A stretch of 54,737 bases of DNA, the filler included, from Jimgerdemannia flammicorona (Eukaryota), in NCBI GenBank assembly GCA_003990765.1. It is 2 parts of 2 records of this genome, joined end to end, with 100 filler letters (N's around TTAATTAATTAA, not from the genome) between each part and the next. Parts side by side here need not be neighbours in the genome. Positions count along the whole stretch, not along the records: positions 27,421 to 54,737 come from RBNJ01000641.1; 1 more part is not named here. One strand, given 5' to 3'. Position numbers and translations under genes: made by a program. A model generated the notes under the pieces. That model was not told the DNA's origin and made no database searches. It saw only the letters and a list, made by a program, of their open reading frames with translations. Positions 5,881 to 47,014 of this stretch are shown one piece after another (position 1 is the first letter of the stretch; each line of letters begins with the position of its first letter).

Positions 5881-5925
<45 letters not shown>

Positions 5926-15260: not shown

Positions 15261-15650
15261 AAAAAAAAAAAAAAAAAACTAATGGTCTACAATTCTCTCA
15301 ACTGTTCAATAGAATTATAGCTCAGATATATCTTTTTGAGGTTCTTGATTGTTATATATTATGGTGAAATGTGGTAATTTATTCTCACCTAGATAGAATT
15401 TCTCTACAGTATTTCAGATCTATCAGATTTTTTTATATATCATTACTATTAGTAATCTTGGTATAAAATTTTTAGAATTTTATTAGTAATTCTATAAGTA
15501 TTAGCAGAAAGAGTCAAAATAGTAGTTATAAGCTAGTATTTTTTTTTTTTAATATTATAATATTTAGAGTTGGGTAAGATTAAGAGACTGAGTTTGAATA
15601 GTGGTATGGTGAAAGAATTAGATGTTTTAAATAATTAGTAAATTATGAAT

Positions 15651-15651
<1 letters not shown>

Positions 15652-15742
<91 letters not shown>
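15652..15742. repeat. ~90-nt poly(T) tract at a repeat/gene-island boundary
   Basis: Seen directly. Confidence 0.9.
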
Positions 15743-18242: not shown

Positions 18243-19845
18243 ATGTCAATATTTTTTACCAAAATTATTGATAAAGCCAAGCAAGCTTCCCAGGGCCATA
18301 TTCAACCGCAAGGTAGCGAAAACAACGTGCAACCATCCGCCTATTCCTCATCCTCCGGCGATGGAGCCTCAAACGCCCACCGGGGCAGACGAAGATCAAC
18401 CTCGTTTTCTCATTCTGCTCTCATCTCCACCAGCCACCGCTCCTGGTCTACCTTTGTCCCCCCCAGGGTCGTCACAGAACAGTTTCAGCAACGCTCCACC
18501 CAAGAGTGACGAGGACTCAAACCGCATGAGCGTGGACGAGTCAGGTGTGTTGAGTGGCCTCGGGTTCCCACGGGGGCTCGGGTTCGCAGATGAGGCGCCA
18601 CCCCTTGCGTCCGTGTTTATCGTTACCCAGGTTGCTGGATACGTCCCTGTACGGGTTCGCCCAAGCAATGAACCAAACCGATCAAATTAACTAATCACGC
18701 GTCAACCTTCGGTCGCGGGCAGACTTCCAGCCTATGCAGCTTTCTGACTCTATGCCCCCACCCAGCACCATACCTCCAGCGAAACCCACTCCACAGCAAC
18801 CCCCACCGCAACCCACCATGGCCCAGCCAGACCAACCGATGGTGCTCGAGCAACAGCAACAAGGTAACTAACAGATTGTTCAGGATAGATTCTGAACTAA
18901 CCAGTTCGGAAATGTATGGGTGAAGAGCGGGCACTTGGCGTCGGAGCTCATGCTAAAATTACCGGAACAACATGACGACCCCACGATCTGACGATAATCT
19001 CAGGACAGTCCGCGATTTGACCGAAGCCAACACATCGATCACCCAATCTCAGGAGTGGACTAAGTGCATCTCACATACAAATCATTCCCCTCTCCTTACC
19101 CAACTATCCACACTTGACTGCATCACCCTCAGAACGACTCACACCGGTCACAACACCGAACTCTCCCCCACTGACTCCCACCACCCCCACAGTCCCTTCC
19201 GTCCCGGCGAACGTTCCCGTCTCCTCCAATCCAAGCGTTACCATCACAGAACTTCACAGCACGTCCCCACCCTCAACCTCAACTCACAACCCCCCCACCA
19301 CCGCTGCGCCCACCGTCGTCCCGACCGCTAGCACCTCGCAACAGAGCAACGGCGGTTCCGTCGGCGCCTTCAACGATGCCGGTATGATCGCGCAGCGGCA
19401 GTCCCGTCCCAAGCTGAAGTTAGCGGATTTCCACCTCTTGCGCACACTGGGCACGGGTTCGTTTGGGCGCGTGCATCTGTCGCAGAGCCGGGTAAACCAT
19501 CGGTTCTACGCCATCAAGGTCTTGAAAAAGAGCGAGGTCGTGCGACTGAAGCAGGTCGAGCACACGAACAATGAGAAGCACATTCTGGAGAAGGTGGCGC
19601 ATCCGTTCCTGGTCAATTTGTGGGGAACCTTCCAGGACGATGGTAATCTTTACATGGTGATGGATTATGTGCCGGGTGGCGAACTATTCAGTGTTTTAAG
19701 AAAAAGTCAGGTGAGATTTTTTTTTTTTTTAAAAAAAAATAAAAGCAAAACAAACCCAATCATTCATATTTATTACGTTCCACACCTTTGCCAATTTTTA
19801 TCATTATTTTTGGTGGTTGTGTCAATCTATTTCAATTTATCGTTA

Positions 19846-19937
<92 letters not shown>

Positions 19938-20923
19938 CTTGGCGGATTGTCGCATATTTACTTAACTCTGGCATGCTGGTATTAATTTTTTCACTATGGT
20001 TATTTCCGGCAACGTATCCACAGCGCTTCCCCGATCATGTCGCGAAATTTTACGCAGCGGAGGTCATCCTCGCAATCGAGTACCTTCATTCGAAAGATAC
20101 CATTTATCGCGATCTCAAACCCGAGAACCTTCTCCTCGACGCGCAGGGTCACATCAAGATCACCGACTTCGGTTTCGCCAAGCACGTTCCTGATATTACT
20201 TGGACCTTGTGCGGGACGCCCGACTACCTGGCTCCGGAGATCATCCAGTCTAAGGGCTACGGTAAGGCTGTCGACTGGTACTCGCTAGGTGTACTCATCT
20301 TCGAAATGCTAGCCGGGTACCCGCCCTTCTACGATGACGATCACCTCAAGCTGTACGAAAAAATCCTGCTCGGGAAAGTGAAATGGCCCTCCTACTTTGA
20401 TCCCTGGGCCAGGGATCTCCTCAAACGTTTGCTCACGCCCGACCTGTCTAAGAGGTTTGGCAACCTCAAGGGCGGGAGCGACGATATCAAGAGGCACCGG
20501 TGGTTTGACGGCGTAGACTTCAACAAAGTGCTGAGGAGGGAGATCAGGGCGCCGTATGTGCCACAGATCCGGGGAGAGGGCGACGCCAGCCATTTCGATA
20601 GGTATCCGGAGGAATCGGAACCGTATGGGCAGGCGCAGTCCGATCCATATAGGTATGGGTTTGGTTTTCACTGCGATTTACTTGTTTCGTGGGATCTTTT
20701 TGGGAAGTTAGGGTTACAAAATGGGCTTAACCCGGGTGTGGAAAGAACAAATGGTATTCGGGACGGATAGCTTGGTGTTTCGTTTATTTTATAGTTTTTG
20801 GGAACACTAAAAAATCTGATGCGTGAGACACAAAACTTATATGCACATCATTAATGGGTCTTCACTACTGCTATATTTTTGTTTTTCGCTTATCTCCACA
20901 GGGAAAAGTTTCCCGACTTTTAA
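18243..20923 (+). CDS. pkaC: cAMP-dependent protein kinase catalytic subunit; exons 18243-18312, 18434-18544, 18723-18863, 19133-19710, 20024-20652, 20902-20923
   Basis: [58 protein letters not shown] and a terminal FPDF* hydrophobic motif. All five GT-AG introns are phase-compatible; the three N-terminal exons are less certain than the kinase domain. Confidence 0.93.
19848..19937. repeat. ~90-nt poly(T) tract within PKA intron 4
   Basis: Seen directly. Confidence 0.9.
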
Positions 20924-22393: not shown

Positions 22394-23620
22394 ATGACCA
22401 TTCGACCAGATAGGCGCACGGAGCCCACCCAATTACGCCCGTTCAGCTCGTCGCAGAACCTGTTGAACCGATGTGACGGGTCGGCGCAGTTTCAGTTTGG
22501 TTAGTTGGTGGCATTGATAGTTGCGGCAATGGCATCGAAGCAAATAGCAAACAAAATTCAAGCACAACTTTATCCCAAAAAACATTAACTTTCCGGCTTT
22601 CTTGCCGCCTTACAAGACAAGACCGCCGTCCTCGTCTCTATCACGGGTCCCACGGAGGTGAAGTTCCGAGACGAGAAACTTGACCGGGCCTCGCTTGAGG
22701 TGATTGTGCGACCGCTGACGGGCCTGTCCTCGACGAAGGAGCGCGTGCTTGAGAATGTGATGAGATCTACCTTTGCCAACGTAATTCTCACTGGGCTGCA
22801 CCCACGCACGAGTATTCAGATCGTCGCGCAGGTCATGAAGGACGACGGTTGTGTGAGTGTCGGGGTTATTGCTGTTTGCTTACTGGTAGTCTGTGGGGTA
22901 AGGTATGACAAGCTGGATAATTCTTCAGCGAAATCTTTAACATCTATAGCGTATTTTGGACTGCACCAGGTCCAGTCCGCTGCCATTAACGCCACCACTA
23001 TGGCCCTGCTCGACGCCGGCATACCGATGAACGCGCTGGTCGGGTCAGTGACGTGTATGGTTGGCAAGGAGGACGGCGAGATCCTGATGGACCCTACGAT
23101 GGAGGAGCTGAGCGTAGGTTTTAGGAGTGGTTTGTGTGGTGGATGGGTGGCGCATTTTCGTGTTGTTCGGGTTTTGCTGACCGAACTCAATGTTCTGCCT
23201 GCTTCCGTCTCGGCAGCGCGCCCGGTCAATCCATACGTTTGCATTCGACAGCGCTTCCAGGACGTCGGTGATGATGGACGAGAATGGAGGGAAAGGGACG
23301 TCGGGTGGCGTGGTATTATATTCGGAGTCCACGGGAGATTTCACGGAGGATGAGGTGTGTTTCTCTTGATACTTTTCTGTTTTGTTTTTTACTGGTGGAA
23401 AACAACTATAATAATAGCAAGGAGCGGAGAGAAACGCAGTGGTGGCTTTACAAGGCATGACTTGACATTCATTCATCTTCCATCCATCCATCCCATGCAC
23501 TACTAGTACTTTGGGTGCATGTCGTTGTGCCAGCAGGCGACGCACAAAGTGCATGGGTTTGTGCGGACGGCGGTGGAGAAAAAGATTGAGCGGGAGTACC
23601 AGCAGATTACTGGATCGTAG
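22394..23620 (+). CDS. RRP46: Exosome complex RNase PH-like subunit Rrp46 (multi-exon)
   Basis: LRPFSSSQNLLNRCDGSAQF, VLVSITGPTEV, EVIVRP, HPRTSIQIVAQV..DDG, AAINATTMALLDAGIPM, DPT.EE; last exon ends ..QQITGS*. Confidence 0.85.
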
Positions 23621-27320: not shown

Positions 27321-27420
27321 NNNNNNNNNNNNNNNNNNNNNNNNNNNNNNNNNNNNNNNNNNNNTTAATTAATTAANNNNNNNNNNNNNNNNNNNNNNNN
27401 NNNNNNNNNNNNNNNNNNNN
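27321..27420. other. Assembly gap with artificial TTAATTAATTAA linker
   Basis: N runs flank a six-frame-stop spacer at 27365-27376. Confidence 0.95.
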
Positions 27421-29717
27421 GACCAAATTCGAATGGACCAAGGAGCACCAAGAAACCTTCAATGAACTCAAGACCAGGTTGACCCAAGCACCCATCCTCA
27501 GAAGACCAGACTGGAACCTAGAATTCATCCTGCAGACAGATGCGAGTACTATAGGACTTGGAGCAGTCCTAGCTCAGAAGAAAGATAGATATGAATATGT
27601 TATCTCCTACACAAGCCGAGGTACCCATGGAGCAGAACAGAACTACAAGTCATGCAAGCTTGAATGCTTAGTGGTAGTTTGGGCAGTAGACAAGTTCCAC
27701 TACTACCTAGCTAGAAAACACTTCACCATTCAAACAGACCATTCCACTCTTGCCTGGCTATTCCACACTCTGAACCCCAAAGGAATATATGCCAGATGGA
27801 TCTATAGGCTACAAGAGTATAACTGTACTGTCAAGCACCACCCAGGAAAGACCAACACCAATGCCAATGCACTCTCAAGGACACTCCAAAATATCCCCAT
27901 CAAGACTATTCAACATAAATAAGGAGCTATACTATGGATTAATCGGCTACCTTGGGCAGCAGAAGATGCCCAACCACCTCAAACCCTGGACAATCACCAT
28001 CATTAACCAGACTTGGAAACAGTTTGAATTAGACAACACTACACTCAGAAAAGGAGGAAAGCTAGTAATATCTGAACACAAGAAGTATCAAGTAATGAAG
28101 GAAGTACATGAGCAAGGACACTTAGGAGGAACCAACATATATGACAAGGCAAGAAGAACCATGTGGTGGCCCAAGATAGAAGAAGACCTGTGCCAATTTG
28201 TCAAAGGGTGTGATAAGTACCAAAAACAGAAACAAGATCAGTAAGACCAGGCACCTGGATCATCAAGAATTGAGCCTATCCCCTTCCACCACATCGCAAT
28301 GGATATTATTGGACCACTACCAGTAACACTATCAGAAAACCACTATATTATAGTTATTGTAGACCTCTTCACCAAATGGATAGAGGCAGGAGCATTACAA
28401 GAAGCCAATGCCCTCTCTATAGCTGATTTTCTATACCGAGAAATCATCTGCTGCTACAAGACACCAAAGCAAATCACAACAGACTGTGGCACAGAATTTG
28501 TCAATGGATTCCACGAGATAATGTACCAGAAATATAAGATCCAGCACATCAAGACCACCACATACCACTCTCAAGGAAATGGACAGACAGAGAGAACCAA
28601 CAAGACCCTCAAGAACATCCTAGCAAAGATCTCAGAGACATATGAGAATTGGGATAACTATCTCCCAACTGCCCTCTCCATTCTATGAGACATACAGTCA
28701 CAGAGCACACATTTTACCCCAAGAGAGCTGCTCTTCAGAGAAGAAGATTCTAATGGAACCTCAGCCACAAATCTAGACCTAACTTGGAGATGGGTTGATG
28801 CAGAAATCCGGAGACTATACTAAATCAGGAAGAAGGCTGAAGATTACATCACCAAGTCACAAGCACTGACAAGGAAGAATGCAGAAAAGAATCACAAGGC
28901 CCTAGAACCCATCCGAATTGGAGAAAAGGTTCTACTGTATCGAAATATGGTAGAAGCCTCATGGTCACGAAAACTGGAGCCCAAATGAGAAGGACTCTTC
29001 TATATGCAAGATATCAAGAGAACTACCTTCTGGCTTAGAAAAATCTCAGGGACCATACTGCCTACCACAGTATATAGGAACAGACTCAAGAAGTACCATG
29101 AACCTATACAAGAGAAGTAAAATGTGATGACCACCCATGAGGTTCTAGTCCACAAATCATAACAGCATGTCCTGTGACCAGCAGGCTATCTGTCTGGACC
29201 ATTCTCTAAGGGATACGGTACTGGCAACTACTCATCCATGAGACTTTCACAGTCAGAGGAGTTCGAACTATCAACTGATTAGTCAAGATCAGAATCAGGC
29301 CCTTGCTCTATATAAAGGGAGTGACCCTTCACCATCATGCCAAAATACAAAGAGAAGATGCCAGTCTATAAATACTAGTTTTCAACCCCTTGCCAGAGGT
29401 TATGGGATCAGCAAATTTTTCAGGACTGGACTAATGAATAAGGATGCTCAGGAAGATCCTTATTCAGGAGGAAGATGTAATGGTGACCCCAGAATGATGA
29501 CATCAGCACAGAAGACAGCCTTTCCTTACAAGCCACCAGATCAGAGCACAAGAAGATTATATGGCATATGAGATGAGCAATGATGACCAACTGTGAGTCA
29601 TTGTGACCACAGTACAAGCATCCTGAAGAATATAAAAGAAGGATCAAGGAACCACAGTAGTGGCAACCAACAAGAACCACCAATCCCAAAATAGCTCAAA
29701 GACTTACCACAAACAAA

Positions 29718-30500
29718 ATGCCTGCTATCTGCCAAATCTCAAGGTCAAGAAATCACTAAGATATCTCAGTTGAGGAAAAGATGTTTCAAGACATCAGAAG
29801 AGCCATGAGGACCCGCTCAAGAAGGACTCCTAGTGTCAACCTGGGTACTGCAGACTCTTATCACTTTATCCTCTACTGCTGCAAAATGGAAACAAGGATC
29901 ACCATTGCTACTGAATGTCTCCAAATGTAGCAGGAGTATGAAATAGGAAACCTCCTCTGCTAGGAGTTCCCACAGGCCAGCACCCAAGAGCTACAAGATG
30001 CCACTATCATGGATATATGCAAAACAAGGATAGCTAGGAAGATCTATCAGATCTTCAGGCATGCACCATAGTCAATCCCCAACTTGGAGTATGTTAGAGT
30101 CTCAGATTTCAGAGATCTATCATCCTGCCATATCAATGCACTAGAAACCAGGGTGGCTACAGAAGCCCAGTCCACTATCACCCTCAACAGCAAAGAAGTA
30201 GAAGACTTCTGGTACCCTATCTTTCAGGACAACCCAGATCAATTCCTACAAGGATTGATCTCAGTATTCCAAGGCCCAAGTATCCCCACATTTGTTTCTT
30301 ATTTTGTGGAAGAGAACCTTATAGACTGGAGAGCTCCAGCCCTTGTTTCCAATTTCCCCACCACAGCCAAACATGATGATGTCATCAATGATATCATCCC
30401 ACGTAACATTGAAGCACACAAAAATGATGAATTCGTGGATCTCATCTCCTTCAGTAATGATGATGATGAAGCCCCCATAATTCTGAACTTTCTGCTCTAA
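29718..30500 (+). pseudogene. ~260-codon accessory ORF3 of gypsy element A, interrupted by 4 revertible stops
   Basis: Single frame from ATG 29718 to TAA 30500; internal stops are TAA/TAG, each one transition from CAA/CAG/TGG. Confidence 0.7.
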
Positions 30501-30514
30501 GTTCTTTGTTATAC

Positions 30515-30706
30515 TAGATAATGCCAGTACCGGTATTCTCATATAATACTGGATAATGCCAGCACCGGCATTCTGAGGTGACATGAAATTGTTCCAGCAC
30601 TGGTATTCTCATGTAACACTGAATAATGACAGCACCGGCATTCTGAGGTGATATGAAATTGTTCCAGCACCAGTATTTTGATGTGACACTAAATATTGCC
30701 AGCACT
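30515..30706. repeat. ~35-bp tandem repeat (5-6 units) in the 3'/U3 region of element A
   Basis: Units of ataatgccagcaccggcattct..gtgaca with a dimeric ~70-bp period. Confidence 0.8.
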
Positions 30707-31577
30707 GAAACTTAGTAGTTTTAGTTATTGGAATTTATATTTAGCTTTATATCTTAGCAACCATTGAATTATATTTTGTATAAATACCTCTCTTATTTCC
30801 TCTGAAATAAAGTCAATCTTCTTAGTACAATATATACACTTCCTTGCAAGCAATCTAAGAGATAACAAGACAGTTAAAGATAAGAAGTTTGAGGACTATA
30901 AGACCTTGGAAGGCACTCCAATAAGAACTTGCTTATAACAAACTTGAGTTAGTCTAAGAGATACATCTTGAAGAGAATCTGGCATATTTGAAGGACTCAG
31001 CAACCACTATATAACAATATACTACTTTAGTTTGAATTGTAGATGAGGTCAGGTTGAAGTGAATGATAGACTCTTAGCACTCTATACTATATTAATACTA
31101 TTAATAAAATCTCATTTACTATTACCTAAATCTACTTCTACTATAATAATTATATTTATTAAATTATTTATATACTAATTCTCTTAAAAACTTCTCTTCT
31201 ATAAGGTCAGATAAAATTATCTCTTACTTTTCATTTTATATTATATTTATTAATATAATAATAAAAAATAGTTATACTATTAAATACTTTACTCTATCTA
31301 TCCTATTTGTAAATATTACTAATTTACTTTAGTAGATCTATAAAGTAGTGATAATATTGATATCCACTATACATACTAAAATGAGTAAGTACTATATAAA
31401 TATCATTTTGCAATTCCAATAGCTTGCAAATTATATTCAAACTGATCTTTAAAAGATTTGTAGCTCAGTGAGAGATATAAATCAAAGTACTTTATTTGAT
31501 CTACTAATAGAAAAAAAAAGAGCCAGTAGAAGTTCTATGGAAATATCTCTAACTGAGAAATATATACAGTAACAGTT

Positions 31578-33793
31578 GATCTGAATTAGGAATATGAATC
31601 AGAGGAAGAGATATTTGATCATAGTACCTGAATCTGATTTCCAAATATAGTATAGCCTTACAAATAGCAGTCACTCTACAAGTATAGAAACTTTATAAGT
31701 ATAGAAATCTTATAAATGTAAAATTCTTATAATTATAGAGATTCTATAGATGAAGAGAATCTACACTTATAGAAAATAACTTATCAGAAATATAGTTATA
31801 ACTTAGCCAACTTATAGCTATAAATATTCCCAATATCTAGAGTAAATAAACCTCAGATTGAAATAGTTTAAAATAAAGAGAAAGTAAGAGAACTAGTAAG
31901 CCTGCAGATAGATATACTTCAAACTCACCCACTCTTATATTCTGAAAACTCTGTAAAATCAAAGAAGATCAAGTTTTCAAGATATAGAAATCTGATATAC
32001 TTACTCAGTTATATATCTACTATATTATAACTTGGTGTCCATTGACTGGTGATTTAAGACAAATCTCTCACTTTTAAGCTAAACAACAAATAACTGCTAC
32101 CACCTGAACAACTATATAAATCAACCAAGACATCCAGACAAGATGGATATGAGACTGCCAGTATTTCATAGATATACCTCAGATGAATCAATCATTACCT
32201 TCATTGATAATTTTGAGTAGTATACTGCTATAAGGACTCTGATAGTAATATAATAAATAGCCCTCATATACTTCAGTCTCTGAGGCTCAGTAAGAGCAGT
32301 ATTCACAGCTATAATTTATATGGGAAATAATGATAATGCTGTACTGACAGTACAGAAGGCCTGGCTCTAAGCTATCTATAATATAGATGAGATTAAGTAA
32401 GCCCTGAAGGATTAGCTCAATATAATATACCAAGGAATGAGTAAGGACTCAAATATATTCTATATCAGAATCTGCTATTAGATAATTCTTGCTAATTATA
32501 CTGATGCTATTTAAGATCAAGTAGCTAAAGTAACCTTCATGAAAGGAGTTCACTCAGAGATAGCCATAGTCATCTAATTATTACTAGTAGTTCTGGACCT
32601 ATTACAGAAGGTCACCTATGCCCAGTAATACTGGATAGTCAGACATCTACAAGACTATATAATGGAAAGAGTTACCAGAGTCAAAATAGAAACACTTAAG
32701 ACAATTAGTACATATGATCTCCACTATAGTGATCAATCAAAACACATCTCAGCCAAAGAGCTACTGAGTAGAGAAACAGCAACTCTATGGAGGAACTAGC
32801 TAAGAAGTTTACTGAAATGACTGCTCACTTAAGAGTTGTGATAAAGGAAATTAGAGAAAGAGATCACCATCTAGTCTAGAAGTTTGCTATAATCTCAGAC
32901 AAGAAGAGAGGTACTTGCTATACCTATAGAGAAGAAGGCCACTACTTATATAAATATATAAGTGAAACTAAGCATAAGGCCTAGTCAAGCAATACTACTT
33001 AAAACAAAGAACAGACTAATACTATTATCTTCAAAGAGATTGGAGAATCATATAAAGAAGAATGTGAGACCTACTCTGCACAGACCACCAAGAAGGATGT
33101 TTATAAGAAATCCTACAAGAGACTACCAGAAAGACTCAAGAAGAATTCAGTAGAGAAACAGATGGAGATTGCTATAGAAAGCCAAGCCAAAGAAATAGAT
33201 CAAGATATAGAGTTAGAACAGACTGTTTAAGATATTATTTGAGAAACTACTCTAGCTAGTGAAGGAGAAAAGAAGAAAAAGCTTTATAAGACCAAAACTT
33301 TTAAGTATAATATCTTCAAGGATCTCTGATTCAAATTAGGAATATGAATTAGAAGAATAGATATTTGATTACAGGCCTGAATCAAATTCCAAAATATAGT
33401 ATAGCCTTATAAATAGCAGTCATTCTACAAGTATAGAAACTTTATAAGTGTAGAGATTTTACAAATATAAAATTCTTTTGATTATAGAGATTCTATAGAT
33501 GAAGAGAATCTATACTTGTAGAAAATAACTTACCAGAAACATAGTTAGAACTTAGCTACCTTATGGATAGCAAACTTGTATAAATATCCCCAGTATCTAG
33601 AGTGAATAAACCTCAGATCAAAATAGTTCAAAACAAAGAAAAAGTAAGAGAACTAGTAAGCCTGCAGATAGATATACTTTGAACTCACCCACTCCTACAT
33701 TCTGAGGACTCTGTAGAGTCAAAGAAGATCAAGTTTTCAAGATACAGAAATCTGATATACTTACTCAGTTATGCATCTACTACATATGTTACA
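31578..33793 (+). mobile_element. LTR family C element: two ~450-bp direct repeats flanking a gag-only interior
   Basis: 31578-32029 matches 33328-33793 (ends ..TGTTACA). Candidate PBS TGGTGTCC at ~32033. gag relic LPVFHRY..ESIITFIDNFE and decayed zinc knuckle CYTYREEGHYLYKY; no pol. Confidence 0.75.
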
Positions 33794-34134
33794 ATATATA
33801 GGATAGAGATATTTATTATAGTTATTTTGATAAAGAACAAATAGTTTAACACTTATTATTTTAAAAAATAAAATAAATATTATTGTAATAATCTTGATTT
33901 ATTACTTATTTTAAATATATATATACTTTTAAAATCAGTACCTTCTTAAGTTATTTTTTAAAAATTCAATATTAAAATATTGTACTTTTTTCTATATTCA
34001 ATATTTATTTGATCAATATTTAATACTTTCTCTCTATAAAGAAGGTATAGATAGATAAATAGATAGATTATATACTATATTATATATAATTGTAAAACTT
34101 ATTATTAATTATTCTTATTTTCTATGAAATTTAT

Positions 34135-34330
34135 AAGAGAATGATAGATATATGCTACTTTAGCTTAAGATTAGATAAATAATAGATATATGCTGCTTTA
34201 GCTATAAATGATAGAAATATACTACTTCAGCCTAATATACTACTTTAGCTTAAATTATAGATGAGATCAGATTAGGGTAAATGATAGATATATATAATAC
34301 TTTAGCTTGAGATTAGATGAATGATAGATT
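34135..34330. repeat. ~38-40-bp minisatellite, short array
   Basis: Unit tagataaataatagatatatactactttagcttaagat; same unit and orientation as 40140-41390. Confidence 0.8.
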
Positions 34331-34419
34331 ACTATTATTTAAAGTTATTTCATTACTATTATTTGATATATATATTGTCTTTTTGTCTAGTATATCTGTT
34401 ATTATTATTATTGTTATTA

Positions 34420-36840
34420 CTATGTCTAAACTTATTAATATATCTATATCTATTCTCTTATCTGATTTTCTATTACTTTTTCTGAACTTATTAATATATC
34501 TATCTGCCTCAAACTCATTGATACCCAAACTTATAGATATTCTGAACTCATCAATATCCTGAACTCATTAATATCCCAAACTCATCAATACTCTGAACTT
34601 ATTAATATTTCTATATCTATTATCTCATTTAATTTTTTATTGTTTTTTCAGAAATCATTAATACTCTAAACTTATTGATATACTCATTTCTCTTATATAT
34701 ATCAAATTGGCCTATTCTATCAAGTATATCTGGTTTCTTTTAATTTATCTATAGTTATTATAATTATTATCATTACTATATCTAAACTCATTAATATATC
34801 TATCTAACCTAAACTCATTAATATCTTGAACTTATCAATACTCCAAACTCATTAATATACCCATCTGTCTCAAACTTATTAAAATATCTATATCCATTAT
34901 CTTATTTTATTCTCTATTACTTTTTCTGAACTTATTGATATACTCATCTACTCTAAACTTATTAATACTCCAAATTCATTAATGTTTTGAACTCATTGAT
35001 ACTCCAAACTCATTAATGTTCTAAACTCATTGATACTCTAAAATCATTGATACTCTAAACTCATCAATATTCTGAACTCATTGATATACTTATTGATATT
35101 TTTTTTTTTTTTTTTTTTTATATAGACTCAGAGTCTCACAGAATTTTATTGGAAGGGAATCTAGACTATATAAGCCAAAACTCTCCCCCACCACCCATTA
35201 AGCACTACTCTTCTATTAAACCTAAACTAGCTATTGTCCAGTGGCTCAACTATGCCAGATGCAACAGAGTCAATAGTAGTCCATACCTCATTCTGCATAC
35301 TATACTCTCCCTACTACCAGGGAGAACTCAGCTATATATCAATGACTGAAAGCATATATATATCTGAAACTCCAATATATATACCTAAGCCAAATAGAAT
35401 AGCCTCTGCCACTCTAAGTAGAAATGATAGATAAAGAAAAACCCCTCTCAAAAAACAGAACAGTGGGTAGGACCTGATTCTCCCAAGCAAGATAAGTAGA
35501 GAACTTATATATAAGATAGGAGGAGACCCCCAATACCCCACTAATCAAGCCTGTAGACCTTGATTATATTGCTACATCAGCTTTCAGTTCTAGTTGAGTA
35601 TAGTCAAGATGTCTGACCTGGGTAGCCTTAGGCCTCTCAGCCACCTCCAATGACTGGGGCCCAACTCTATGAATTGCCAAAAGTAGCCAAGAGTAACATC
35701 TACTACTTAACTATCCTGTATTAATCAAAAGGCTCCACCAAAGCAGTACTTGCCCCAGCCCCAATAACTGCCCCTAGCCTAGTATCCTACTGGTCCATCA
35801 TTATCACCCTTCCTTCTATCTGTAACAGCTATCTCTCCTCTCATCCCAATATCACTCAAAAAACAGTCATCTATATCAGAACCATGCTTGCCAGGAAGCT
35901 CACCAAAGTCAGAGGGCCCCACTACAGATACTGAGGACCTGCAGGTAACCTATACTAAGCACTTGATACCCAAGGTTGACCAATTCCCTATATAATTCAT
36001 AATACACCAAGATGATACCTTATTGGTTATAGTAAAAGAAAGAAGATACCATACAGAAATAAGTATACCCCAGATGTAGCTAAAGGTACCAGAAACTGTA
36101 AAAAAGTGGAGAAGACACTGATCTGACACTGATAAAGGGGCAATTCATCACTATTGTCTCCCTCCTGTTATGCCCTTATAGGCACAGAAAACCAATCCAA
36201 GGTAGAGAGAGTAATAATAGAGGAAAGAGAACTTGGAAGATTGCTTACCAAAAGGCAAGATAGTGGAGAAAGAGGTATTGAACTCATTGATACTCTAAAC
36301 TCATTGATGTACCTATTTTTTTTATATCAATTTTATCTGTTCTATCAGATATATCTGGATCCTTTTTAATTTATCTAGAGTTATTATAATTATAATTATT
36401 ACTATATCCAAACTTAACAATATCCCTATCTGCCCTAAACTTATTAATACCATAAACTCATTGATATCTCATACTTATTAATACTCTAAACTCATTAATA
36501 TATCTGTATCTATCATCTTATTTAGTTCTCTATTACTTTTTCTAAACTTATTGATATATCTATCTACCCCAAACTCATTAATATTCTGAACTTATTGATA
36601 CTCTAAACTCATTAATATATCTATATATATTATCTTATCTAGTTCTCTTATATTAAATTGACTTATTTCTTCTATTAGATATATTAGATTCTTTTTAATT
36701 TATCTGAAGTCTTATCTATCAATCTATAGATATTTTTTCTAGTATCTCTGTTATTATTATTATTATTATTTCTGTATTCAAACTCATCAATATACTCATC
36801 TGCTCCAAACTTATCAATATCTCAAACTTATTAATATATC
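34420..36840. repeat. 18-bp degenerate tandem repeat region (aaactcattgatactct), split by a LINE insertion
   Basis: Dozens of units at 34420-35098 and 36276-36840, with higher-order duplications. Confidence 0.8.
35099..36275 (-). mobile_element. 5'-truncated LINE inserted into the 18-bp repeat region
   Basis: Poly(T) at 35099-35119 with minus-strand AATAAA (~35145-35150), higher GC body, and the flanking repeat resumes at 36276. Confidence 0.65.
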
Positions 36841-36873
<33 letters not shown>

Positions 36874-37572
36874 CTACTCCATTATTATTATTATTACTGT
36901 GTCTCTATTATTACTAATCTCTACTACCTGTCTAAATATATATACTATAATACTCTATCTCTTTACCATCCTTTTACTTATCACTATTATTACTATTACT
37001 ATCTGGTATCTCCTTATTACCTACTGTCTCATTATTATTATTATTATTATTATCATTATTAGTCTCATTCTCTTGAACTGGTAATAGTCTCAATAGTTCA
37101 TTGAAGCTTATGAAGCTAATATATTCTCAATCTCTTATTAGTAAACTTAAAGCTATTATAGAGACTATCAATAAATACCTACTATCAGAAATGAGGAAAT
37201 TATATAAAATAGAAAAAAAGTAGGATTTATTAAACATTTATTTGATCTTTGTGAAGTTCCCAATGATGAGCAAATAGTGTAGTCAATTTTAAAAGATAAG
37301 TTATAGCAAAATTAAGCTAAAGAGCTTATAGTAATTAATTTTGAATAGAAAGATACAGAAAGATAGTAGAATAGATAATTAAATAAAAAGTCAATTTCAG
37401 ATTATTTATGTTTAAGTTATTAAGATAAATTTTAGTAAATAGTATTAATAAGAAGAGTATAAATATCAATTATAATAACAACTGTTATCATAAAACCAGA
37501 GTCACTAATACTAATAGTATCATATTTCTTCTAAAAGTACCAACTATATATACTATAGAAGAAGTAATATTA

Positions 37573-39959
37573 CAGTCAGACCTTCATAAATATATCTCCC
37601 TAGAGACTGGCCTGGATCATACATTTGTATTTATAGAATCAGGGGTCTTTTTGATAGAAAATCAATACAGTTGATATTTATTGTTTGAAATATTGATCTA
37701 AGATAATTTTGATATATTATTCCAACCTATTTATCCTTAACAAACTTTTCAATTATCTCTGTGAACTTTACATACTCAGTAACATTCTCTTACTATAGTA
37801 GAAAGATATATACAATATTGAAGCTCCTTATTACTATACTTAAGGTAACTATAGCAATTTCACTACTATCATCTACCTCATCTTAATGCTCAGTACTTTT
37901 CTTATCTATTCTCTTGAACATCTTAATGAGATCCTTAATAATATAATCATTCTTTATAACTTCATTTACTATATCTTCTTCTGGGATATGAAGGCACTCA
38001 TTTACTTATATAGGATTAGAGAATCTTAGAGCTTTGAGTGCCCTAGTGAGAATATTGAGAACTGGGTCATTGTTTTGATGAATATTATACATGAGGTTGT
38101 GGAGATCAGCATTTGTAGTTACAGGTAGAATATTGGTATGATGTCAATAGTTGCAGATAGTATCTATTGAAACTTCATTCTATACTTAAATAATATATTA
38201 TATTGCTTGAAGAATATCCATCTTCAGATCCTATATATTCAGGCCAGACTCAACTTACTTCAGAATCTATCTAAAAAAAAATCTAGAGATCAGATCATAT
38301 AGAGTTTATACTGTAGATAATATTTATAATATATCATATATAAAAGTAATAATAATGCATCTTAAAAGATATGATAATTTCTGTATCTATTGGCTGGATT
38401 TTCAAAGTAGTATTCAGAAAGAGAAAATAAATATCAATATACTACAGAATCTGATCATTCAGCTTATAACTTGAATAATTGTCAAGAAGTAGTAGAATAT
38501 GCTATCTATTATACTTCCTATCAATCTAGTAATCAAACTCTTGAAACCATTCTTGGAAGAGAACTATGAGTATCTAAGCTGACATTGTGATGATATATCA
38601 TCAAGAGTTGCAAATATTAATATTTCTAAAGTAGTGAGGCTTTTTATATGTATTTGCCAATAATCAATAGATCCAACTTATATAAGCCATCAGCATTTGC
38701 ATAAAGTACAATAGAAAGACACTTTTTGTTTTTCTTATATCTACTAAGTCATTATGATGCCGGACTCCTATCTGGCTCCTATATAGAAAGAATTATACAA
38801 GAAGTAAAAGTAATAAAATGAGGAAGATAAAATATAATAAAGATATATACCAATAAAAGAGATCTGTTTTATCTATATTATATATAAATTCTCTTTAAAG
38901 AATAACTTATATATTTGTCATACATCAAAGACAGAGTATTAATAATAGTTATCTAATTAGTAGATGTAGTCTTTTCTTCAAGCTTTTGCTGATAGATACC
39001 ATTGTGCTTTTTGAATTTCTAAAGCCAGCTATATAAGAATTGAAGTTTGTCTTGAGGAATCTTCAGTCTATTAGTAAGTAACTTTGCCTTCTCTATGAGT
39101 ATAGCATTACTCAAGATTGTTCAATACTGAAAGTTTAGTATAAACTCACTGAATACAAGCTTGAACTTTAGAAAGTTGATAGATTTGTATTATTTTGCTT
39201 AAGGATTAGCAACTTCACTAGTAAGTTATATATATATATTTAGTCTAGAGGATTTATATTAATATAGATTTGTCAACTTTGACTCTACTTCTCTTCAATC
39301 CAATTGATATATTTATCTTATATTTTCTTGTTATCATGAGCATAGATAGAAAATTTATATTTCTGAGAGTTTGTAAGAGTGATCTTATATTTAAGAGATA
39401 TGTTGATGATGATTTGAAATAAATTCTCTTTCCTTACTATTTATTGTTATCATTAGTAGGATATAATTATATAAAATGTACTGCCTGTATAGCCAGTACT
39501 ATTCAGTATCATCCAGCACTATCCAGCACTACCAAGTACTACCCAGTACTGCTCAGTACTGCCCAGCACCACTCAGTACTACTCAGTACTACCCAGTACT
39601 ACCCAGTATTGCCCAGCACTACCCAGTACTGCCCAGCATTACTCAGTACTGCCCAGCACTTCTCAGTACTACTTTTTTATATAGCTCTATGGACAGCTAT
39701 CTATATAGCTAAAATTGTGATATAATTAAAAGCACTCTATATATCTAATATTACTAACTCATTATCTACCTTTATTATCTAGGTGACATTTTTACATTTA
39801 GAGAGAGAGTTTTATAATAAGTAGACTAGAAAAATCCTTGCACATATAGAATAAGAAGAATGTATATTTAACACTAGGTCCTGAGCTTGAGACTAAGCCT
39901 AAACATATATTTAAGAAGTATATATATTTATAGAGAGTGTATTTATAGAGGTCTGACTA
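37573..39959 (-). mobile_element. Complete but decayed pogo/Tigger (CENP-B HTH + DDE_1) DNA transposon with TIRs and TA target duplication
   Basis: TA|CAGTCAGACCTTCATAAAT (37573) and its inverted copy ending at 39959|TA. Minus-strand relic transposase ~39400-37650: SWL*KFKKHNGI, NRDKTDLFY (~NMDETGLFY), NADGLYKLDLLIIGKY, LLLLDNYSSY, FLNTTLKIQPIDTEII. Confidence 0.9.
39490..39672. repeat. 10-bp tandem repeat (cccagtactg/ctcagtacta), ~18 units, upstream of the pogo transposase
   Basis: Seen directly. Confidence 0.9.
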
Positions 39960-40139
39960 TAAGTAAAAAATAGACTTATTGTAGAATTTAGAGATAAATA
40001 TAGCAATAACAATGAGACTTGGAAATTAATAAAGAAAATAATTAATAAATATAAGATAAGCTGGAAATTTATTATAATAGAGTAGTAGGTTGGAGACTAA
40101 AATAGTTAAGATTGAGAAATATAATACTACTTAAGCTTG

Positions 40140-41390
40140 AATCAGAGATGAGATCAGATTGAGATAGATGAGAATAATGAATACATATATGCTACTTTAG
40201 CTTAATATACCACATTAGCTTGATATACTACTTCAGCTTGAATTACTAATTAGATCAGATCAAAGTAGATAAGAATAATAGATATATATTACTTTAGCCT
40301 AATATATCACTTCAGCTTAAATCATAGATAAGGTCAGATCAGAGTAAATGATAAATATATATTACTTTAGCCTGATATACCATTTAAGCTTAAATTGCAG
40401 TTGAGATCAGATTGGGATAAATGATGAATATATACTACTTTAGCTTAAAATTAGATAATTGATAGATATATACTACTTGAATTGCAGATGAGATTGGGTC
40501 AGGATGAATGATAGATATATATTACTTTAGCTTAAATTACAGATGAAATTAGGTTGAGATGAATAATAAATATATATTACTTTAGCTTAAGATTAGATAA
40601 ATAATAGATATATACTACTTCAGCTTAAGATTAGGTAAACAATAGATACAGATAAGATCAGATCAGGATAAATGATAGATATATACTACTTTAGCTTAAG
40701 ATTGGATAAATAATAGATATATATCACTTTAGCTTGAAATTAGATAAATACTACTTTAGTTTAAGATTAGATAAATAATAGACATATACTACTCTAGCTT
40801 GAGATTAGGTAAATAATAAACATAGGCTGCTTCAGTTTGAGATTAGATAAATGATAAATATATATCACTTTAGCCTGATATATTACTTTAGCTTAAATCA
40901 GATGAATGATGAATATATACTATATTAGCTTGAGATTAGATAAATAATAGACATATATCACTTTAGCTAAAAATTAGATAAATAATAAATATATACTACT
41001 TCTGCTTGAGATTAGGTAAATAATAAATATATACTACTTTAGCTTAAAATTGAATGAATAATAAACTATGTTACTTTAGCTTAAAGTATAGATGAGATCA
41101 TATAAATAATACTTTAGTCTAATATTCTACTTTAGCTTAAATTACAGATAAGATCAGATCAGGGTAAATGTATGCTACTTTAGCTTAAGATTAGATAAAC
41201 AAAAGACATATATACTATATTAGCTTAAAATTAGATAAAAAATAAATATATGTTACTTTAGCTTGAGATTGGATAAATGATAAATATTTATTACTTCAGC
41301 TTGAATTGCAGATATGTAAGATTGGGTCAGAGTGAACAATAAATATATAATTAAATAAATAATAGATAGATACTACTTGAGCTATGAGAT
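40140..41390. repeat. ~38-40-bp minisatellite, long array with 20-bp and gagatcagat sub-units
   Basis: Roughly 30 recurrences of tactactttagcttaa/gagatt. Confidence 0.9.
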
Positions 41391-42151: not shown

Positions 42152-43577
42152 TGTAATATACCTGGCTCAATGGAGGCAAATTATAAGATTGGAGATTGGT
42201 GTAGTTTGGCTTGAGCTCTCAGTTACTTTGTCAAAAAGTAATAAAATATTCTAAGATTCCTGAGGTTCTTGGTGTTTAGTGGTATAATAGTCAATCTGGA
42301 TATAATGGTCAATTTAATCAGATTTCCTTATTGGGATGGTTCTCTGGGTATAGCAGTGATTTGTATGTGAATGGGTTTTCTTCTTAGGTCAACTGGAAAT
42401 TGATAGAATTTCATATATAGTGTACTGATCTCTGTATATAACAGTCTGGCAATTTAACAGTTCTCCTTCTTGAGTGATAGGTGATCTCTATATAGTACAA
42501 TGATCTCTATGTAGCATGACAGGTTCCTTATGTATGACAGTCTGACAATTTAGCAGTTTTCCTTCTTGAGTGATGATCTCTAAAAGTATGCAATTTCAGA
42601 TGAATGGCTTGATTTGGTACAGCTTCTCTGAAGTAGTGGCTTACTGGGAATTATATTGATAGCAGATTCTTCTGTTCCGAGCTCACTGGAAACAATAACT
42701 TGAGTGTTACAGATTCTTCTTAACCAGCAGCTCTCTCTGGAAAATAACTCAGATGGTATGGATTCTTTTGAATTGAGCTCTTCTGGGAATAATAACTTGG
42801 GTTCTTGGTAAGTTACATCAAAGACTGGCTTCATTTGCATGAAAAAATCACTGCAAAGTTGTATCAAGAGACTGGCTTATGGCAAGGACTCTCTGGAAAT
42901 GTGGTTTTCTCTTCAAAAGATAGTAAATAACTCAAAAGGTGGCAAAGTTCTTCCTTGAACTTAGCAGCAAACTCAGATTCTTTAGGCTTATCTGGCAAAT
43001 GAACCAAGGCTTTGTATCAGAAAGTGGACCAGAGTGGGAAAGGGGCAAAGCTTACAATCTCTTAGTAGTAGCTATAGAGCAGGCATTTCTCCTAAGTATT
43101 ACAATCCTTTCTAGATCAAGTGGCTTTTGGCAGGTATATCTCTCAAAGTATAGTAGACAGACTTGTCTTTTGCTTTGTATTTCAGAACTGAGGTTTATTC
43201 ACTCTTGTCTCTGGGGTATTTTATACAAGTTGGTTGCTATCTGGTTGCTATGTAGCTAACTATAGATTTACTACTTCTGATAATGTTTGAGTGTGTTCTC
43301 TGAGTACAGGTGTATCCACAGGACATGAGTGTGTCTACAGGACATGAGTGTGTCTGCAGGATATGAGTGTGTCTGCCAGATACAGATATGTCCTCAGAAT
43401 ACAGATAAATAACCCTGGTCTGGTATCCTGGTTAATTATAAGTGTGGTGGACATGAGTAACTATGATATACTAGAAGTCACATCATGCTGGAAGTCTATA
43501 TTATCTAGCTAAGTATGCTAATTGTTTGCATCATCTGGCTAAGTTATAATTCAGGTGATATATTTTAGTTTGTTATA
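42152..43577 (-). repeat. 3' LTR of element B
   Basis: Begins TATAACA (decayed TG..) right after the PPT and ends ..GTATATTACA; homologous to 51123-52256. Confidence 0.8.
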
Positions 43578-43616: not shown

Positions 43617-44132
43617 TCAGTCATCATCCCAATAGGCATAAGCAGCTTCTATATCTATATCTGTTCAATCATCTTTGTTATCTATACTAGGGTCACTCTA
43701 TTCTAAAGGCTCCTCCTCTTTCTTGAGAAATAGAGTCTCAACTTGGTGGATGATACTGAGGTAGGTGGGCAGAGTCATCCTTTGGAGATCATTCAGAGAG
43801 AACTGGGCCTGGATTAGAGCTGAAGAGTTTCATTTGTAGTTTGTATATAATCTTTCTGCAGCAGTAGTATTTCTTCTGTTCAGGCCAGTAGTATTGTAGA
43901 TATAGACCAGATCTGAGAGGGGAAGATTCTGCAATTGTTCTCCAATTGCATAGTAGGCCTACAACTGATGGACCTGAAGTAGTCTCTCAGTCAGAGTGAG
44001 GTTTTCTTAATATACCCAGATTCTTTGGAGATATGTTCTATTGAGCTCTCTGAACTATGGCAGGGGAACTGACAGAACTTGGAGGGAACTAAGGACAAGA
44101 GTCTGGAGGTGGTTGTCAATTCTCTGGTTCAT
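43617..44132 (-). pseudogene. 172-codon accessory ORF3 of gypsy element B (several revertible stops)
   Basis: One frame from ATG 44132 to TGA 43617: MNQRIDNHL..AYYAIGEQL..AAERLYTNY..SLNDLQRMT..WDDD*. Confidence 0.7.
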
Positions 44133-47014
44133 GATGTAGGGAGTGATATATCTTGAGGCAGTTGATAGATACTGATGTCCTCAGGGTTCATCTATCCAAG
44201 CTTCTTAAATAGATGCTGGTTTTTCTGATGTTGTGTACAAGATAAAGTCCTTTCTATTTGAGCTCCAATTTAGCAGCAAAGTTTGTTTCAATCATGTTTC
44301 TCCAAACTAGTACTTGATCTCCAATCTTGATCTTCTGATCCTTCTGTTTCTGGTCATAGTACTTCTTTTGTCTTTTTTGGGCTTTGGTAATCTGAACTTG
44401 GGCCTAATTATATAACTGTTCTGCCTTCTTAAGGAGATCTCTGAGATTCTTATAGTTAGCAGTTCTGGTTTTCTTGGCAAACATTATTTCGAATAACTTT
44501 TGATTGGTGGAGGTAGCAGGGGTGTTCTGAATTTCCCATAGGATCTCAGGTAAGCAGAGGTCCCAATTGATAGAATTGACTCAAGCAAGTCCTTTTTTAA
44601 TGGTCTGGTTTATTCTTTCTGTCATGCTATTGGTCTAAGAGTGATATGATGTAGTCCATTTGAGGTGAATCTTGTGAATTTGGATATAACTTGTGATTAT
44701 ATTATTGATGAATTCTGTGCCTTAGTCAGAGATAAGTTCTTCTGGAGGTTCATATCTGAGTGTGAGTTCATAGAGGAGGCCTACAATGGTTAAGGCATCT
44801 GTGATTTCCATAGAGAAATCCTCAGGCCATTTGGTCAGATGTTCCATAAATATAAGAATGTACTTATTTCTTCTTTGTATAACTAGTAGAGGTTCAATCA
44901 CATCTACTCTCCATCTCTGAAAGATATTTTCTGCTGGTGTGATTGGTTGTAGTAGTGCTTAGTAATTCTTTCTTTCTTAGTACTTCTGACAGATGTCATA
45001 TTTCTTGAGTATGTCCCAGACTTGTGTTCTGAGGTTGGGCCAATGTTGGTGTATTGTTTGCAGCTTCTCTTCTATATTTGCTTGTCCTTGGTGGGCTTTC
45101 TGATGTTCCTTTCAAATGAGATCTTCTTATACTTTGATGGTCTGAGGAGCTTCCTTTAGAGTATAGTTCCTTGGGACACCCTTCTTCTGATTTATTAGGG
45201 CTGGTGGGAAAGTACATAAATATTGTTGTGAGCTTTCTCTGCTTTGTAGATAATGGTGATTTTGTAATCCTGAAGGATAAGGATCTAGTAAACTAGGATT
45301 CCAGTGAGTTCCTTGTGGTTGAATAGCTATTTGAGGGCTATATGGTCTGTGATCAGGGTGAACCTTTTTCCAATGAGATAATGCTTGAACAGGGTAACCA
45401 TCCATATGACTGCAAGGCATTCCAATTTGGTGCTGCCATAATTTATCTGCTGCTGATTGGTAGCCCAGCTTGCATAAGTTATCATATAGTATTGTTGATC
45501 AGATCCTTCTTAGGCTAGAACTACTTCCAGGTCATCTTTGGAAGCATCTGTGTATAATATGAATGGCTTCTATAGATTGGGGTGGATGAGGATTGGTGCT
45601 GTGGTCATACAGTTCTTGAGTTCTTTGAAGACTTTTTCTTGTTACTCTGTCTATTTGTAAGGTACTTCTTTCTTGAGAAGAATTTGGATTGGGGCAGCAA
45701 TTTGGGTGAAGTCTTTAATAAACCTTCTGTAGTATGATACTAGTATCAGGAATAATAGTATTTCCTTTGGGGTCTTGGGTACTGGCCAATTGTTAATCTT
45801 CTTGGTTTTCTTTGGATCTGCATGGGTTCCTTCTTTTGAAACTAGAAATCTAAGGAATTTGAGTTTCTGTTTCCCAAAGTAGTATTTCTTGGCATTGAGT
45901 CTCAGATGGTTCTTGTAGGTGAGCTTGAAGAATTCTTCTAGGTGGTGTAGATGTTCTTTGAAATTTGCTGAATAGATGTTGGAATCATCCATATATACAA
46001 TTAAGCAGTGGTAGATCAGGGGAGTATAAACTGAATTCATCATCCTCTGGAAGATGGGGGGTATCTTGCAAAGTCCAAAGGGCATTTGGAGGTATTCAAA
46101 CAGTTTTTCTAAAGCAAGGAAGGCTGTCTTTTGAATGTCCTTGAGGTCTATGGGGATCTCATGGAATTCTGCAAAAAGGTCTATACTGCTGAAATATCTG
46201 GTATCCTGTAACTGATCCAAAAGGTCATTGATTCTGGACAAAGAATAGGCATTCTTTTAAGTGACTGAATTGAGTTTCCTGTAATCTATGCAGAGTCTCC
46301 ATCTTCTTTTCTTTGGTACAATAAGTATAGGACTGGCCCAGGGGCTGGTAGAGGGTCAGATGACTACATTGTCTAAGAGTTCTTGAATGTACTCCTTTTT
46401 GAATGTTTTTAAGTGGTGGGATATTCTATAGGGTTTCTGTCAGATGGGTGTTGCATTTTCTGTATTTATGCTGTGGTGATATGATGGATTATATGGCAGG
46501 TTGCCATAATCAGTAGTGAAGATATCTTGATATTTGTTGAGGAGTTCTACTAGTTGTTGTCATTGCTGGGGTATCAATTCTTCTCCAATGTTAGTGGAAG
46601 GCTTCACTGTCTCCTGGGTCGCAGAGGGGCCTTTCCTTTCTTCTGAGACCTTTTGCTGTTTCCCAATAAGTTTAGTTCATAAACTTCTCTATGAGTTCAG
46701 TTGAGAAAAGGCACCAGATGCCCTATGATGGTTCCTTTTGGCAAGATGATGGTTTCCCAACTTTGGTTGGTTGTTTGGGAGTGTACTGGATTTATCTTGT
46801 TGTGAAATATATGTCCTTCTATATCCAGGTGTGAGATATCTTCATTGGGTTTGAAGAAAAGGTTTCTGGGGTCAGGTGGTGCAAAGATTTCGAAGGTAGT
46901 TTGTTCTCCAGGCTCCAGGATGAGATTCTTGTGCAGTTTGACTGGTTGGTGGTACACTTGCTGGGAAATATTCCTCTTGAGGTAGTTGACTTAAAGGAGA
47001 TGTACTTTCTTCTT

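Follow-up and report, generated by a model that had tools for sequence, protein, structure and literature searches.

To our knowledge, extra genes other than env are rare in long terminal repeat (LTR) retrotransposons, and in fungi hardly any has been assigned a function. According to the available sections of one survey, most fungal gypsy elements are chromoviruses, which carry a chromodomain at the C terminus of the integrase, and fungal Gypsy elements are depicted there with "additional ORFs with unknown function" (ORF, open reading frame; Novikova et al., 2010; PMC2864245). Boty-like (BcGypsy1) elements of Botrytis cinerea are credited with an additional antisense gene, brtn (Zhao et al., 2011, as cited in an excerpt of PMC8365987). 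Here we describe an extra reading frame in a Ty3/gypsy element of Jimgerdemannia flammicorona (GenBank assembly GCA_003990765.1). It lies in a window, meaning the whole stretch of DNA analyzed, of 54,737 nucleotides (nt), whose positions 27,421 to 54,737 come from RBNJ01000641.1 and which also holds a second Ty3/gypsy element. We call the two elements A and B, the frames that follow their pol genes ORF3-A and ORF3-B, and the proteins related to each frame families A and B. Our explanation is that a chromodomain-less Ty3/gypsy element has a real third gene, of which positions 29718-30500 are a dead copy. Taken as a whole, with the internal promoter and the regulatory role that we propose for the gene, it has, in our judgment, an even chance of being right.

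29718..30500, plus strand: ORF3-A pseudogene, 260 codons plus a TAA stop at 30498-30500

We searched 1.84 billion representative proteins with HMMER, using as query the read-through translation of 29100-30500 with stops written as X. Four proteins matched (E 1.4e-114, 5e-39, 2e-26, and 2.5e-26), with none further at E ≤ 0.001: P0003 (247 amino acids [aa], 84% identical to the window ORF3-A, E 1.4e-114), P0004 (214 aa, 44%), P0005 (138 aa, 67%), and P0006 (342 aa, 34%). All four align solely to query residues 217-466, which correspond to the proposed ORF. Of 2943 candidates in a word-indexed profile search, nine proteins were retained; they derive from JGI or ENA metagenome contigs 600-4848 nt long, and all lack both a Pfam domain and an informative name. 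A contig search by the family A alignment retained two short contigs, L001 and L002, from 225 pattern matches. Family A thus has 13 relatives, all metagenome-derived, comprising 11 database proteins (87-342 aa, 34-84% identical to the window sequence where scored) and the ORFs of the two contigs. Neither family A nor family B has a relative in the viral contigs or the prokaryotic genome contigs searched.

The lineages with intact ORFs are only ~60% identical in DNA, and in all three pairs compared identity is highest at second codon positions, lower at first, and lowest at third positions. The ratio of nonsynonymous to synonymous substitution (dN/dS, NG86 method) is approximately 0.21 between L001 and L002 (280 codons) and 0.195 between the window and L002 (255 codons). 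Together, the codon-position pattern and a dN/dS of ~0.2 indicate that the protein is kept by purifying selection between lineages. The initial annotation had proposed that a conserved accessory gene of the retroelement occupies the env position, with dN/dS as one check; both the four HMMER matches (E 1e-114 to 2.5e-26) and the selection between lineages agree with that proposal. On this sequence evidence, family A very probably represents a real, selected accessory gene.

The copy in the window is, on the other hand, dead. The 260-codon plus-strand frame exists after the integrase as annotated, with its quoted motifs (at 29931, 30030, and 30072) and its acidic tail, but it carries four premature in-frame stops (29757 TAA, 29928 TAG, 29961 TAG, and 30069 TAG) and a 21-bp deletion near 30285. 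At all four stop sites the relatives carry Gln, Trp, or Arg, and the deletion removes seven residues (RVRxPQD) that relatives possess; eight contigs of sequencing run X1 bear the deleted letters, as a loose end at that point. The longest uninterrupted piece is 142 aa (30072-30500). A survey of contigs from four sequencing runs (three soil metagenomes and one single-organism run, all of DNA or unspecified kind) yielded thousands of short pieces of the family of element A. The joints listed for these runs fall within a 35-bp repeat next to ORF3-A or appear in single contigs, and were left aside. In these four runs, transitions make up ~97% of the listed differences between the window and other copies, and the window has A/T where others have G/C about twice as often as the reverse (differences in places per run: A>G 60-67 and T>C 73-83, versus C>T 37-69 and G>A 22-54). 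The A/T excess of the window copy, combined with the predominance of transitions, points to decay by C-to-T and G-to-A change. The window ORF3-A is therefore a copy killed by transition mutations, which account for its four stops, together with the 21-bp deletion.

The surroundings of ORF3-A in element A are as follows.

27321-27364 and 27377-27420, no strand: runs of N that bound element A on its 5' side
27434..27820, plus strand: RNase H of the element A pol (Pfam RT_RNaseH_2 E 8e-34, RT_RNaseH E 1e-31)
28074..29120, plus strand: element A integrase, with H2C2 (28074-28235), the rve core (28278-28568), and a C-terminal part (Pfam)
29121..29717, plus strand: spacer of 597 nt from the pol stop to the ORF3 start, with stops in three frames

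The order of RNase H followed by an integrase with H2C2 and rve, with an LTR-like TATA and AATAAA downstream, is that of a Ty3/gypsy LTR retrotransposon. The element is truncated at the runs of N, so that gag, protease, reverse transcriptase (RT), and the 5' LTR are absent; its integrase contains several premature stops, and its pol ends in ...KKYHEPIQEK before a TAA at 29118-29120. Neither element A nor element B contains a chromodomain (Pfam, three-frame scans, E ≤ 0.01). Element A is thus a decayed, 5'-truncated Ty3/gypsy copy without a chromodomain. A match to a chromodomain or to Env would have spoken against an accessory gene, and Pfam in three frames and hydropathy revealed neither.

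The missing chromodomain raises the possibility that the ORF3-A protein is an integration-targeting cofactor, supplied in trans, that binds the integrase and tethers it to chromatin in place of that domain. Consistent with this idea, no frame of either element encodes a chromodomain, and in both elements pol ends a few residues after the ...YH motif of the integrase, with an extra gene downstream. We recognized, however, no chromatin-reader or integrase-binding motif in the protein, and consider this role quite unlikely.

The frame could also be no functional gene at all: it might have opened by chance, be the decayed remnant of a C-terminal pol extension, or be a fragment captured from the host. 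In favor of this, the frame in the window lies in phase with the integrase and carries stops. Against this stand the intact ORFs that persist at ~60% DNA identity under a dN/dS of ~0.2, and the structure of the start. P0007 (271 aa) begins MPAARQTSRSRNH, where the window ORF3-A begins MPAICQISRSRNH, and an MP(A/P) start is common to five sequences (the window, P0007, P0004/L001, P0006, and L002), from which it follows that the ATG at 29718, the one chosen in the initial annotation, is a conserved start codon. An in-frame stop stands shortly 5' of the ORF3 ATG in both L001 and L002, and in the window the spacer read in the ORF3 frame contains 13 stops in 206 codons. The spacer shows no coding likeness to L001, since tblastn of the frames upstream in L001 stops ~20 nt before the ATG. 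A search for fused forms among proteins of 600-2000 aa (5385 candidates) found none, which is weak evidence. Taken together, these observations make a non-functional frame highly improbable, and the starts and stops show ORF3-A to be a gene apart from pol that begins at a conserved ATG.

Within the spacer, a stretch of 109 open codons that is rich in Ser, Gln, and Pro lies at 29242-29571 (plus strand, frame +1 relative to pol); it has no Pfam match and no likeness to the region upstream of ORF3 in L001. We also considered whether a B-like ORF might be hidden in the spacer of element A, but tblastn with the family B proteins matches element B alone.

Intact family A proteins are ~250-340 aa long and share a core of ~150 aa built of the blocks W-x-EYEIG, AKK(I/V)HQ(I/V)F-x-H-x-P, and I-x-N-(L/I)-x-Y-V-x-V-x-D, followed in our alignments by W-x-P-(I/L)-L-x-D-x-PDQ(F/W) and PY...I-x-WR. 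Most members are net basic over their first 60 residues, where close relatives have RRAMRTR(S/T)RR. The C-terminal third, the final 80-130 residues, is strongly acidic; N-terminal blocks have a net charge of +1 to +4 and C-terminal blocks of -3 to -8. Short hydrophobic patches, namely F-x-(D/N)-L-(I/L) and DLI(S/T)F, punctuate the acidic tail, and P-x-x-L-N-F is conserved close to the C terminus. A membrane helix usually needs a 19-residue hydropathy of ~1.6. The maximum 19-residue Kyte-Doolittle mean in three intact family A members is 0.64-0.74, and the scan of intact members revealed no signal peptide, hydrophobic N terminus, or membrane segment. These values, and the lack of a match to any env family, sustain the earlier view that ORF3-A has neither signal peptide nor transmembrane segment and is not Env, and the intact relatives are accordingly predicted to encode a soluble protein. 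An AlphaFold2 model from a 10-sequence alignment is mostly helical with a mean predicted local distance difference test (pLDDT) of 42.9, and the core may thus be mostly helical, at low confidence.

Database comparisons assign family A to no described family. With the window sequence as query, Pfam returns no family at E ≤ 1, and 10 of 10 members yield nothing significant at E ≤ 10; matches to ATG5_HBR (three members, best E 0.028) and NpmA (one member, E 0.026) were judged to be noise. A profile search of PDB sequences gave zero matches at E ≤ 10. In the ESM Atlas, the best score for P0007 is 0.83, below 0.9, and its Atlas model has a pLDDT of 0.35. Foldseek with the family A model gave no match at E 0.001, and matches would be meaningless given the quality of the model. 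Word searches of the literature, which involve no sequence comparison, found no description of the family. A match of P0007 residues 16-55 to window positions 19203-19319 (E 0.001) falls in the Pro/Ser/Thr-rich N terminus of a kinase gene and was judged compositional.

The charge distribution bears on whether the protein is a particle or RNA-handling protein, such as a nucleic-acid chaperone, packaging factor, or RNA-export factor that works on the RNA of the element in the cytoplasm or at export. Most members have the Arg-rich N terminus that such a protein could use, and the conserved hydrophobic C-terminal LNF(L/T)(L/I) could, by inference only, serve as an export-type signal. The overall acidity, with 27 K+R versus 48 D+E in P0007, is unusual for a chaperone, however; neither the family A nor the family B alignment contains a CCHC pattern, the mark of a zinc knuckle, and likeness to Gag is absent (hhalign of family A versus the element B Gag, P 0.58). 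We regard an RNA-handling role as very unlikely.

The region between the spacer and the LTR-like sequence contains further signals that bear on expression.

29631..29638, plus strand: TATAAAAG octamer, candidate internal promoter, 87 nt before the ORF3 ATG
29701..29725, plus strand: conserved GACTYACYACAAACAAA(N)ATGCCTGC spanning the start codon; each of the three sequences has A at -3
30511..30733, plus strand: 35-bp tandem repeat in about six copies, lying after the ORF3 stop and before the LTR-like promoter, varying between copies
30777..30811, plus strand: LTR-like TGTATAAATACC (30777-30788) and AATAAA (30806-30811)

The octamer occurs at -87 in the window, -80 in L001, and -65 in L002 relative to the ATG, that is, in three of the three sequences with upstream DNA. 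Counting both strands, the 54.7-kb window holds it five times, where shuffles predict 6.05, and L001 and L002 hold it once each. Its surroundings no longer align by blastn, the alignments beginning 19-43 nt before the ATG, and its codon phase in L001 differs from that in the window; these two features suggest that it is a nucleotide-level rather than a coding signal. The 17 nt immediately 5' of the ATG are conserved and A-rich. We consider the box a candidate internal promoter for ORF3-A, with a chance somewhat short of even. Use of such a promoter has a precedent: in some Oikopleura Tor elements the third gene is transcribed from an extra promoter downstream of the 5' LTR, as stated in an excerpt of PMC4402516. 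Downstream, TGTATAAATACC followed by AATAAA stands 180-280 nt after ORF3 in the window and in L002, and the same pair recurs in the element B LTRs. In L001 the ORF3 stop is directly adjoined by GGAGGGAGGA and then TG (L001 1252-1275), which by sequence has the typical form of a polypurine tract followed by the start of an LTR. In L002 a long purine run, GAAGAAAATGAGGAAGAAGAAGAAGATGA, codes for the acidic tail; there may be mutual constraint between the tail and the plus-strand primer region.

We tentatively propose that the ORF3-A protein is a trans-acting nuclear regulator or adaptor, similar to a transactivator, although we hold this possible rather than likely. Transcription of ORF3-A would be driven by the TATAAAAG box, which lies 65-87 nt before the ATG, and would yield a short mRNA ending at the LTR polyadenylation signal AATAAA. 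The protein would act in trans, in the nucleus, for its own element: its basic head might bind nucleic acid or import the protein, and its acidic tail with short hydrophobic motifs might recruit host machinery, in the manner of a retroviral transactivator. We favor this role because the protein is predicted to be soluble, its head basic, its core helical, and its acidic tail rich in motifs, and because the gene is the last of the element and possibly has its own promoter. Purifying selection, which implies that the element needs the ORF3 protein, is a further ground for it.

Several observations weigh against this picture of a third gene and its function. An integrase 5' of ORF3 is seen in the window alone, the L001 and L002 contigs being short. 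Saturation of dS, at 2.8 and in one pair undefined, leaves the dN/dS values approximate. The Arg-rich motif is weak in P0006, the most distant family A member, and the pLDDT of 42.9 provides no usable fold. The TATA evidence comes from three related sequences, and the L002 contig starts 3 nt before the box. Finally, the purine-rich sequence near the polypurine tract may by itself account for part of the acidic tail.

A different role, already suggested in the initial annotation, is that of a counter-defense factor that binds and neutralizes or degrades a host silencing component of RNA interference, DNA methylation, or a repeat-mutation system. Retroviral Vif, Vpr, and Bet counter host restriction factors in this way. 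A small helical protein with a motif-rich acidic tail is a build common among viral adaptors, and the heavy transition-type decay of the element family suggests that such a defense is active in the host. The protein resembles no known suppressor in the PDB, Pfam, or ESM Atlas searches, however, and the window copy has itself been mutated to death, so that we consider counter-defense unlikely.

Element B lies on the minus strand and is complete: two LTRs, 78-88% identical to each other, enclose Gag, protease, dUTPase, RT, RNase H, and integrase.

42154..43570, minus strand: element B 3' LTR, approximate limits
43617..44132, minus strand: ORF3-B pseudogene, 172 codons including the stop, with six premature stops
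~51125-52245, minus strand: element B 5' LTR, partner of the 3' LTR

ORF3-B starts at an ATG at 44132 that lies within a 17-nt overlap with the pol stop TGA (44118-44116) and ends in ...YWDDD ~45 nt before the 3' LTR. Its intact relatives, P0013 (171 aa), P0014 (172 aa), and P0015 (157 aa), are 55-64% identical to it (E 2e-60 to 3e-36), and by these matches ORF3-B too is a real third gene, with a small family of its own. No TATAAA occurs within 280 nt upstream of ORF3-B. The maximum 19-residue hydropathy of family B is 0.94-1.03, again below ~1.6, and hhalign of family B against the element B Gag gives P 0.41. The AlphaFold model of ORF3-B is mostly helical, with a pLDDT of 48.7. In the ESM Atlas, P0013 (Atlas model pLDDT 0.76) scores 0.93 to unnamed clusters and has a structural template modeling (TM) score of at most 0.37 to helical parts of histidine kinases, which we treat as leads only. 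The dUTPase of element B (47018-47393, minus strand) lies between protease and RT in two frames, split near 47190 (Pfam E 3e-06 and 7e-07); according to an excerpt of PMC2864245, a gypsy element of Postia placenta likewise has a dUTPase between protease and RT.

The integrases of A and B are 31% identical over 345 aa (E 5e-44), which makes the two elements distant relatives. The ends of both pol genes share CATGAACC (29098-29127 in A, 44116-44135 in B), which encodes His-Glu-Pro in pol. The ATG in it starts ORF3-B, and in A it opens a nine-codon frame only (MNLYKRSKM-stop). This shared sequence may be left over from an arrangement like that of B, or may reflect mere conservation of pol.

The initial annotation had matched the two ORF3s by eye. 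Its motif spacing stands, with 33 and 14 codons in A and 32 and 14 in B, and so does its register, in which hhalign finds its sole alignment (EYEIG/HYAIG and AKKIHQ/ADRLYT); sequence-level matching by BLASTP or Smith-Waterman failed, and the profile score is not significant. BLASTP of ORF3-A against ORF3-B reaches a best E of 4.5 in a different register, and the Smith-Waterman score is 37 versus 32.1 ± 5.1 in shuffles, with 87 of 500 shuffles reaching it. The family A profile compared with the window ORF3-B gives a probability of 0.8% by hhalign with P 0.072, and the two family profiles compared with each other give 0.7% with P 0.081. A hidden Markov model built from both ORFs had been suggested as a check; each ORF3 proved to have its own small family, with no significant likeness between the two profiles (P 0.08). 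Models of both ORF3s, also suggested, are mostly helical, and over the aligned stretch they show a long, a short, and a third helix, yet with pLDDT values of 42.9 and 48.7, both below 50, they are of low confidence. In local hhalign, the observed score is 19.1 versus 13.1 ± 2.3 for column shuffles, 5 of 200 being as high, and the reversed profile scores 13.5. A global alignment of the 64-residue block picked out by eye exceeds all 1000 shuffles, a result that we discount, the block having been chosen after the match was seen. The profile and model likeness of the two ORF3s is therefore a hint rather than a demonstration; it does not establish the kinship proposed in the initial annotation, and against the refuting condition stated there, a lack of profile or structural similarity, the outcome falls clearly on neither side.

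If the hint is sound, ORF3-A and ORF3-B would be very distant homologs of one accessory superfamily, which would be compatible with any of the functions proposed here. The hhalign best alignment fell in the register found by eye both times, its score of 19.1 exceeds both the shuffled mean and the Gag controls (12.8 and 13.3), the helices follow a similar order around the aligned part of the low-confidence models, and acidic tails end both proteins; with integrases just 31% identical, a signal between accessory genes would be expected near the detection limit. The hhalign probability of 0.7-1.1% (P 0.05-0.08) and the empty BLASTP and Smith-Waterman comparisons speak against it, as do the lengths (~270 versus 171 aa), the placement (a 597-nt spacer and a TATA in A, a 17-nt overlap with pol in B), and the residue at the stop before AYYAIG in B, which is E or Q in intact relatives and not the W of family A. 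We judge a common superfamily possible but doubtful. A broader picture, in which a chromodomain-less fungal gypsy lineage has a regulatory gene with an internal promoter that switches on or protects the element, and in which ORF3-A and ORF3-B are divergent members of an old superfamily, is a long shot; if true, it would place a retroelement of the "complex" type outside animals.

In the wider window, GC-rich stretches hold host genes with short introns, and AT-rich stretches hold repeats and the two Ty3/gypsy elements. The host genes include porphobilinogen deaminase (12394-13822, Pfam E 5e-52), a Ser/Thr protein kinase (19024-20770, Pkinase E 4e-45) that appears cAMP-dependent-kinase-like by eye, and an RNase PH-type exosome subunit (22592-23353, Pfam E 8e-15). 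The structure of these genes and the kind of element point to a fungal host. Poly-T runs of 40-60 nt or more occur at 2730-2850, 5880-5920, 15650-15730, and 19890-19990, one of them inside an apparent intron that splits the protein kinase gene. Direct repeats at 31627-32025 and 33376-33785, 89-90% identical and ~1750 nt apart, may represent a small non-autonomous LTR element or a pair of solo LTRs; the LTR-like tail of L002 weakly matches 33530-33621. The stretches 34100-36900 and 39460-41320 are AT-rich DNA dense in short tandem and interspersed repeats (17-, 38-, and 10-bp units), among them at least 14 copies of CAGTACTACC within the arrays at 39464-39683.

Family A is thus a small protein family under clear purifying selection, without Pfam, PDB, or named relatives and possibly with a promoter of its own. 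Should it regulate transcription, integration, or host silencing, it would offer a handle on how retrotransposons persist in repeat-mutating genomes. The copy in this window is dead, which means that such work must use intact copies from elsewhere.

Among described systems, a functional parallel may be foamy virus Tas, a non-membrane nuclear protein with an acidic activating C terminus, encoded by a gene near the 3' end with an internal promoter. ORF3-A may work like Tas; PDB, Pfam, and Foldseek searches revealed no sequence or structural likeness between the two. Tor of Oikopleura is Ty3/gypsy-like and has, in some classes, a third gene with an extra promoter, but that gene encodes a membrane glycoprotein Env, whereas ORF3-A has no hydrophobic segment (excerpt of PMC4402516). 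Plant Athila/Tat and bdelloid rotifer LTR elements likewise have an ORF between integrase and 3' LTR; in the sources' available sections these ORFs are env-like or shared with other retroelement types, while ORF3-A matches no Pfam env family (PMC2864245; PMC5408684). brtn resembles ORF3-A as an accessory gene of a fungal gypsy element with no function assigned in the available section of the source; compared by description only, brtn is antisense according to its cited title, whereas ORF3-A is sense and downstream of pol (PMC8365987). The ORFs drawn by Novikova et al. are like ORF3-A in being extra uncharacterized ORFs of fungal-type Ty3/gypsy elements. The sections available concern chromodomain-bearing elements, whereas A and B lack the domain; the comparison is by description only, and identity is possible (PMC2864245). 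Family A, which has no detectable named relative, therefore belongs to a kind already known, the extra ORFs of fungal gypsy elements.

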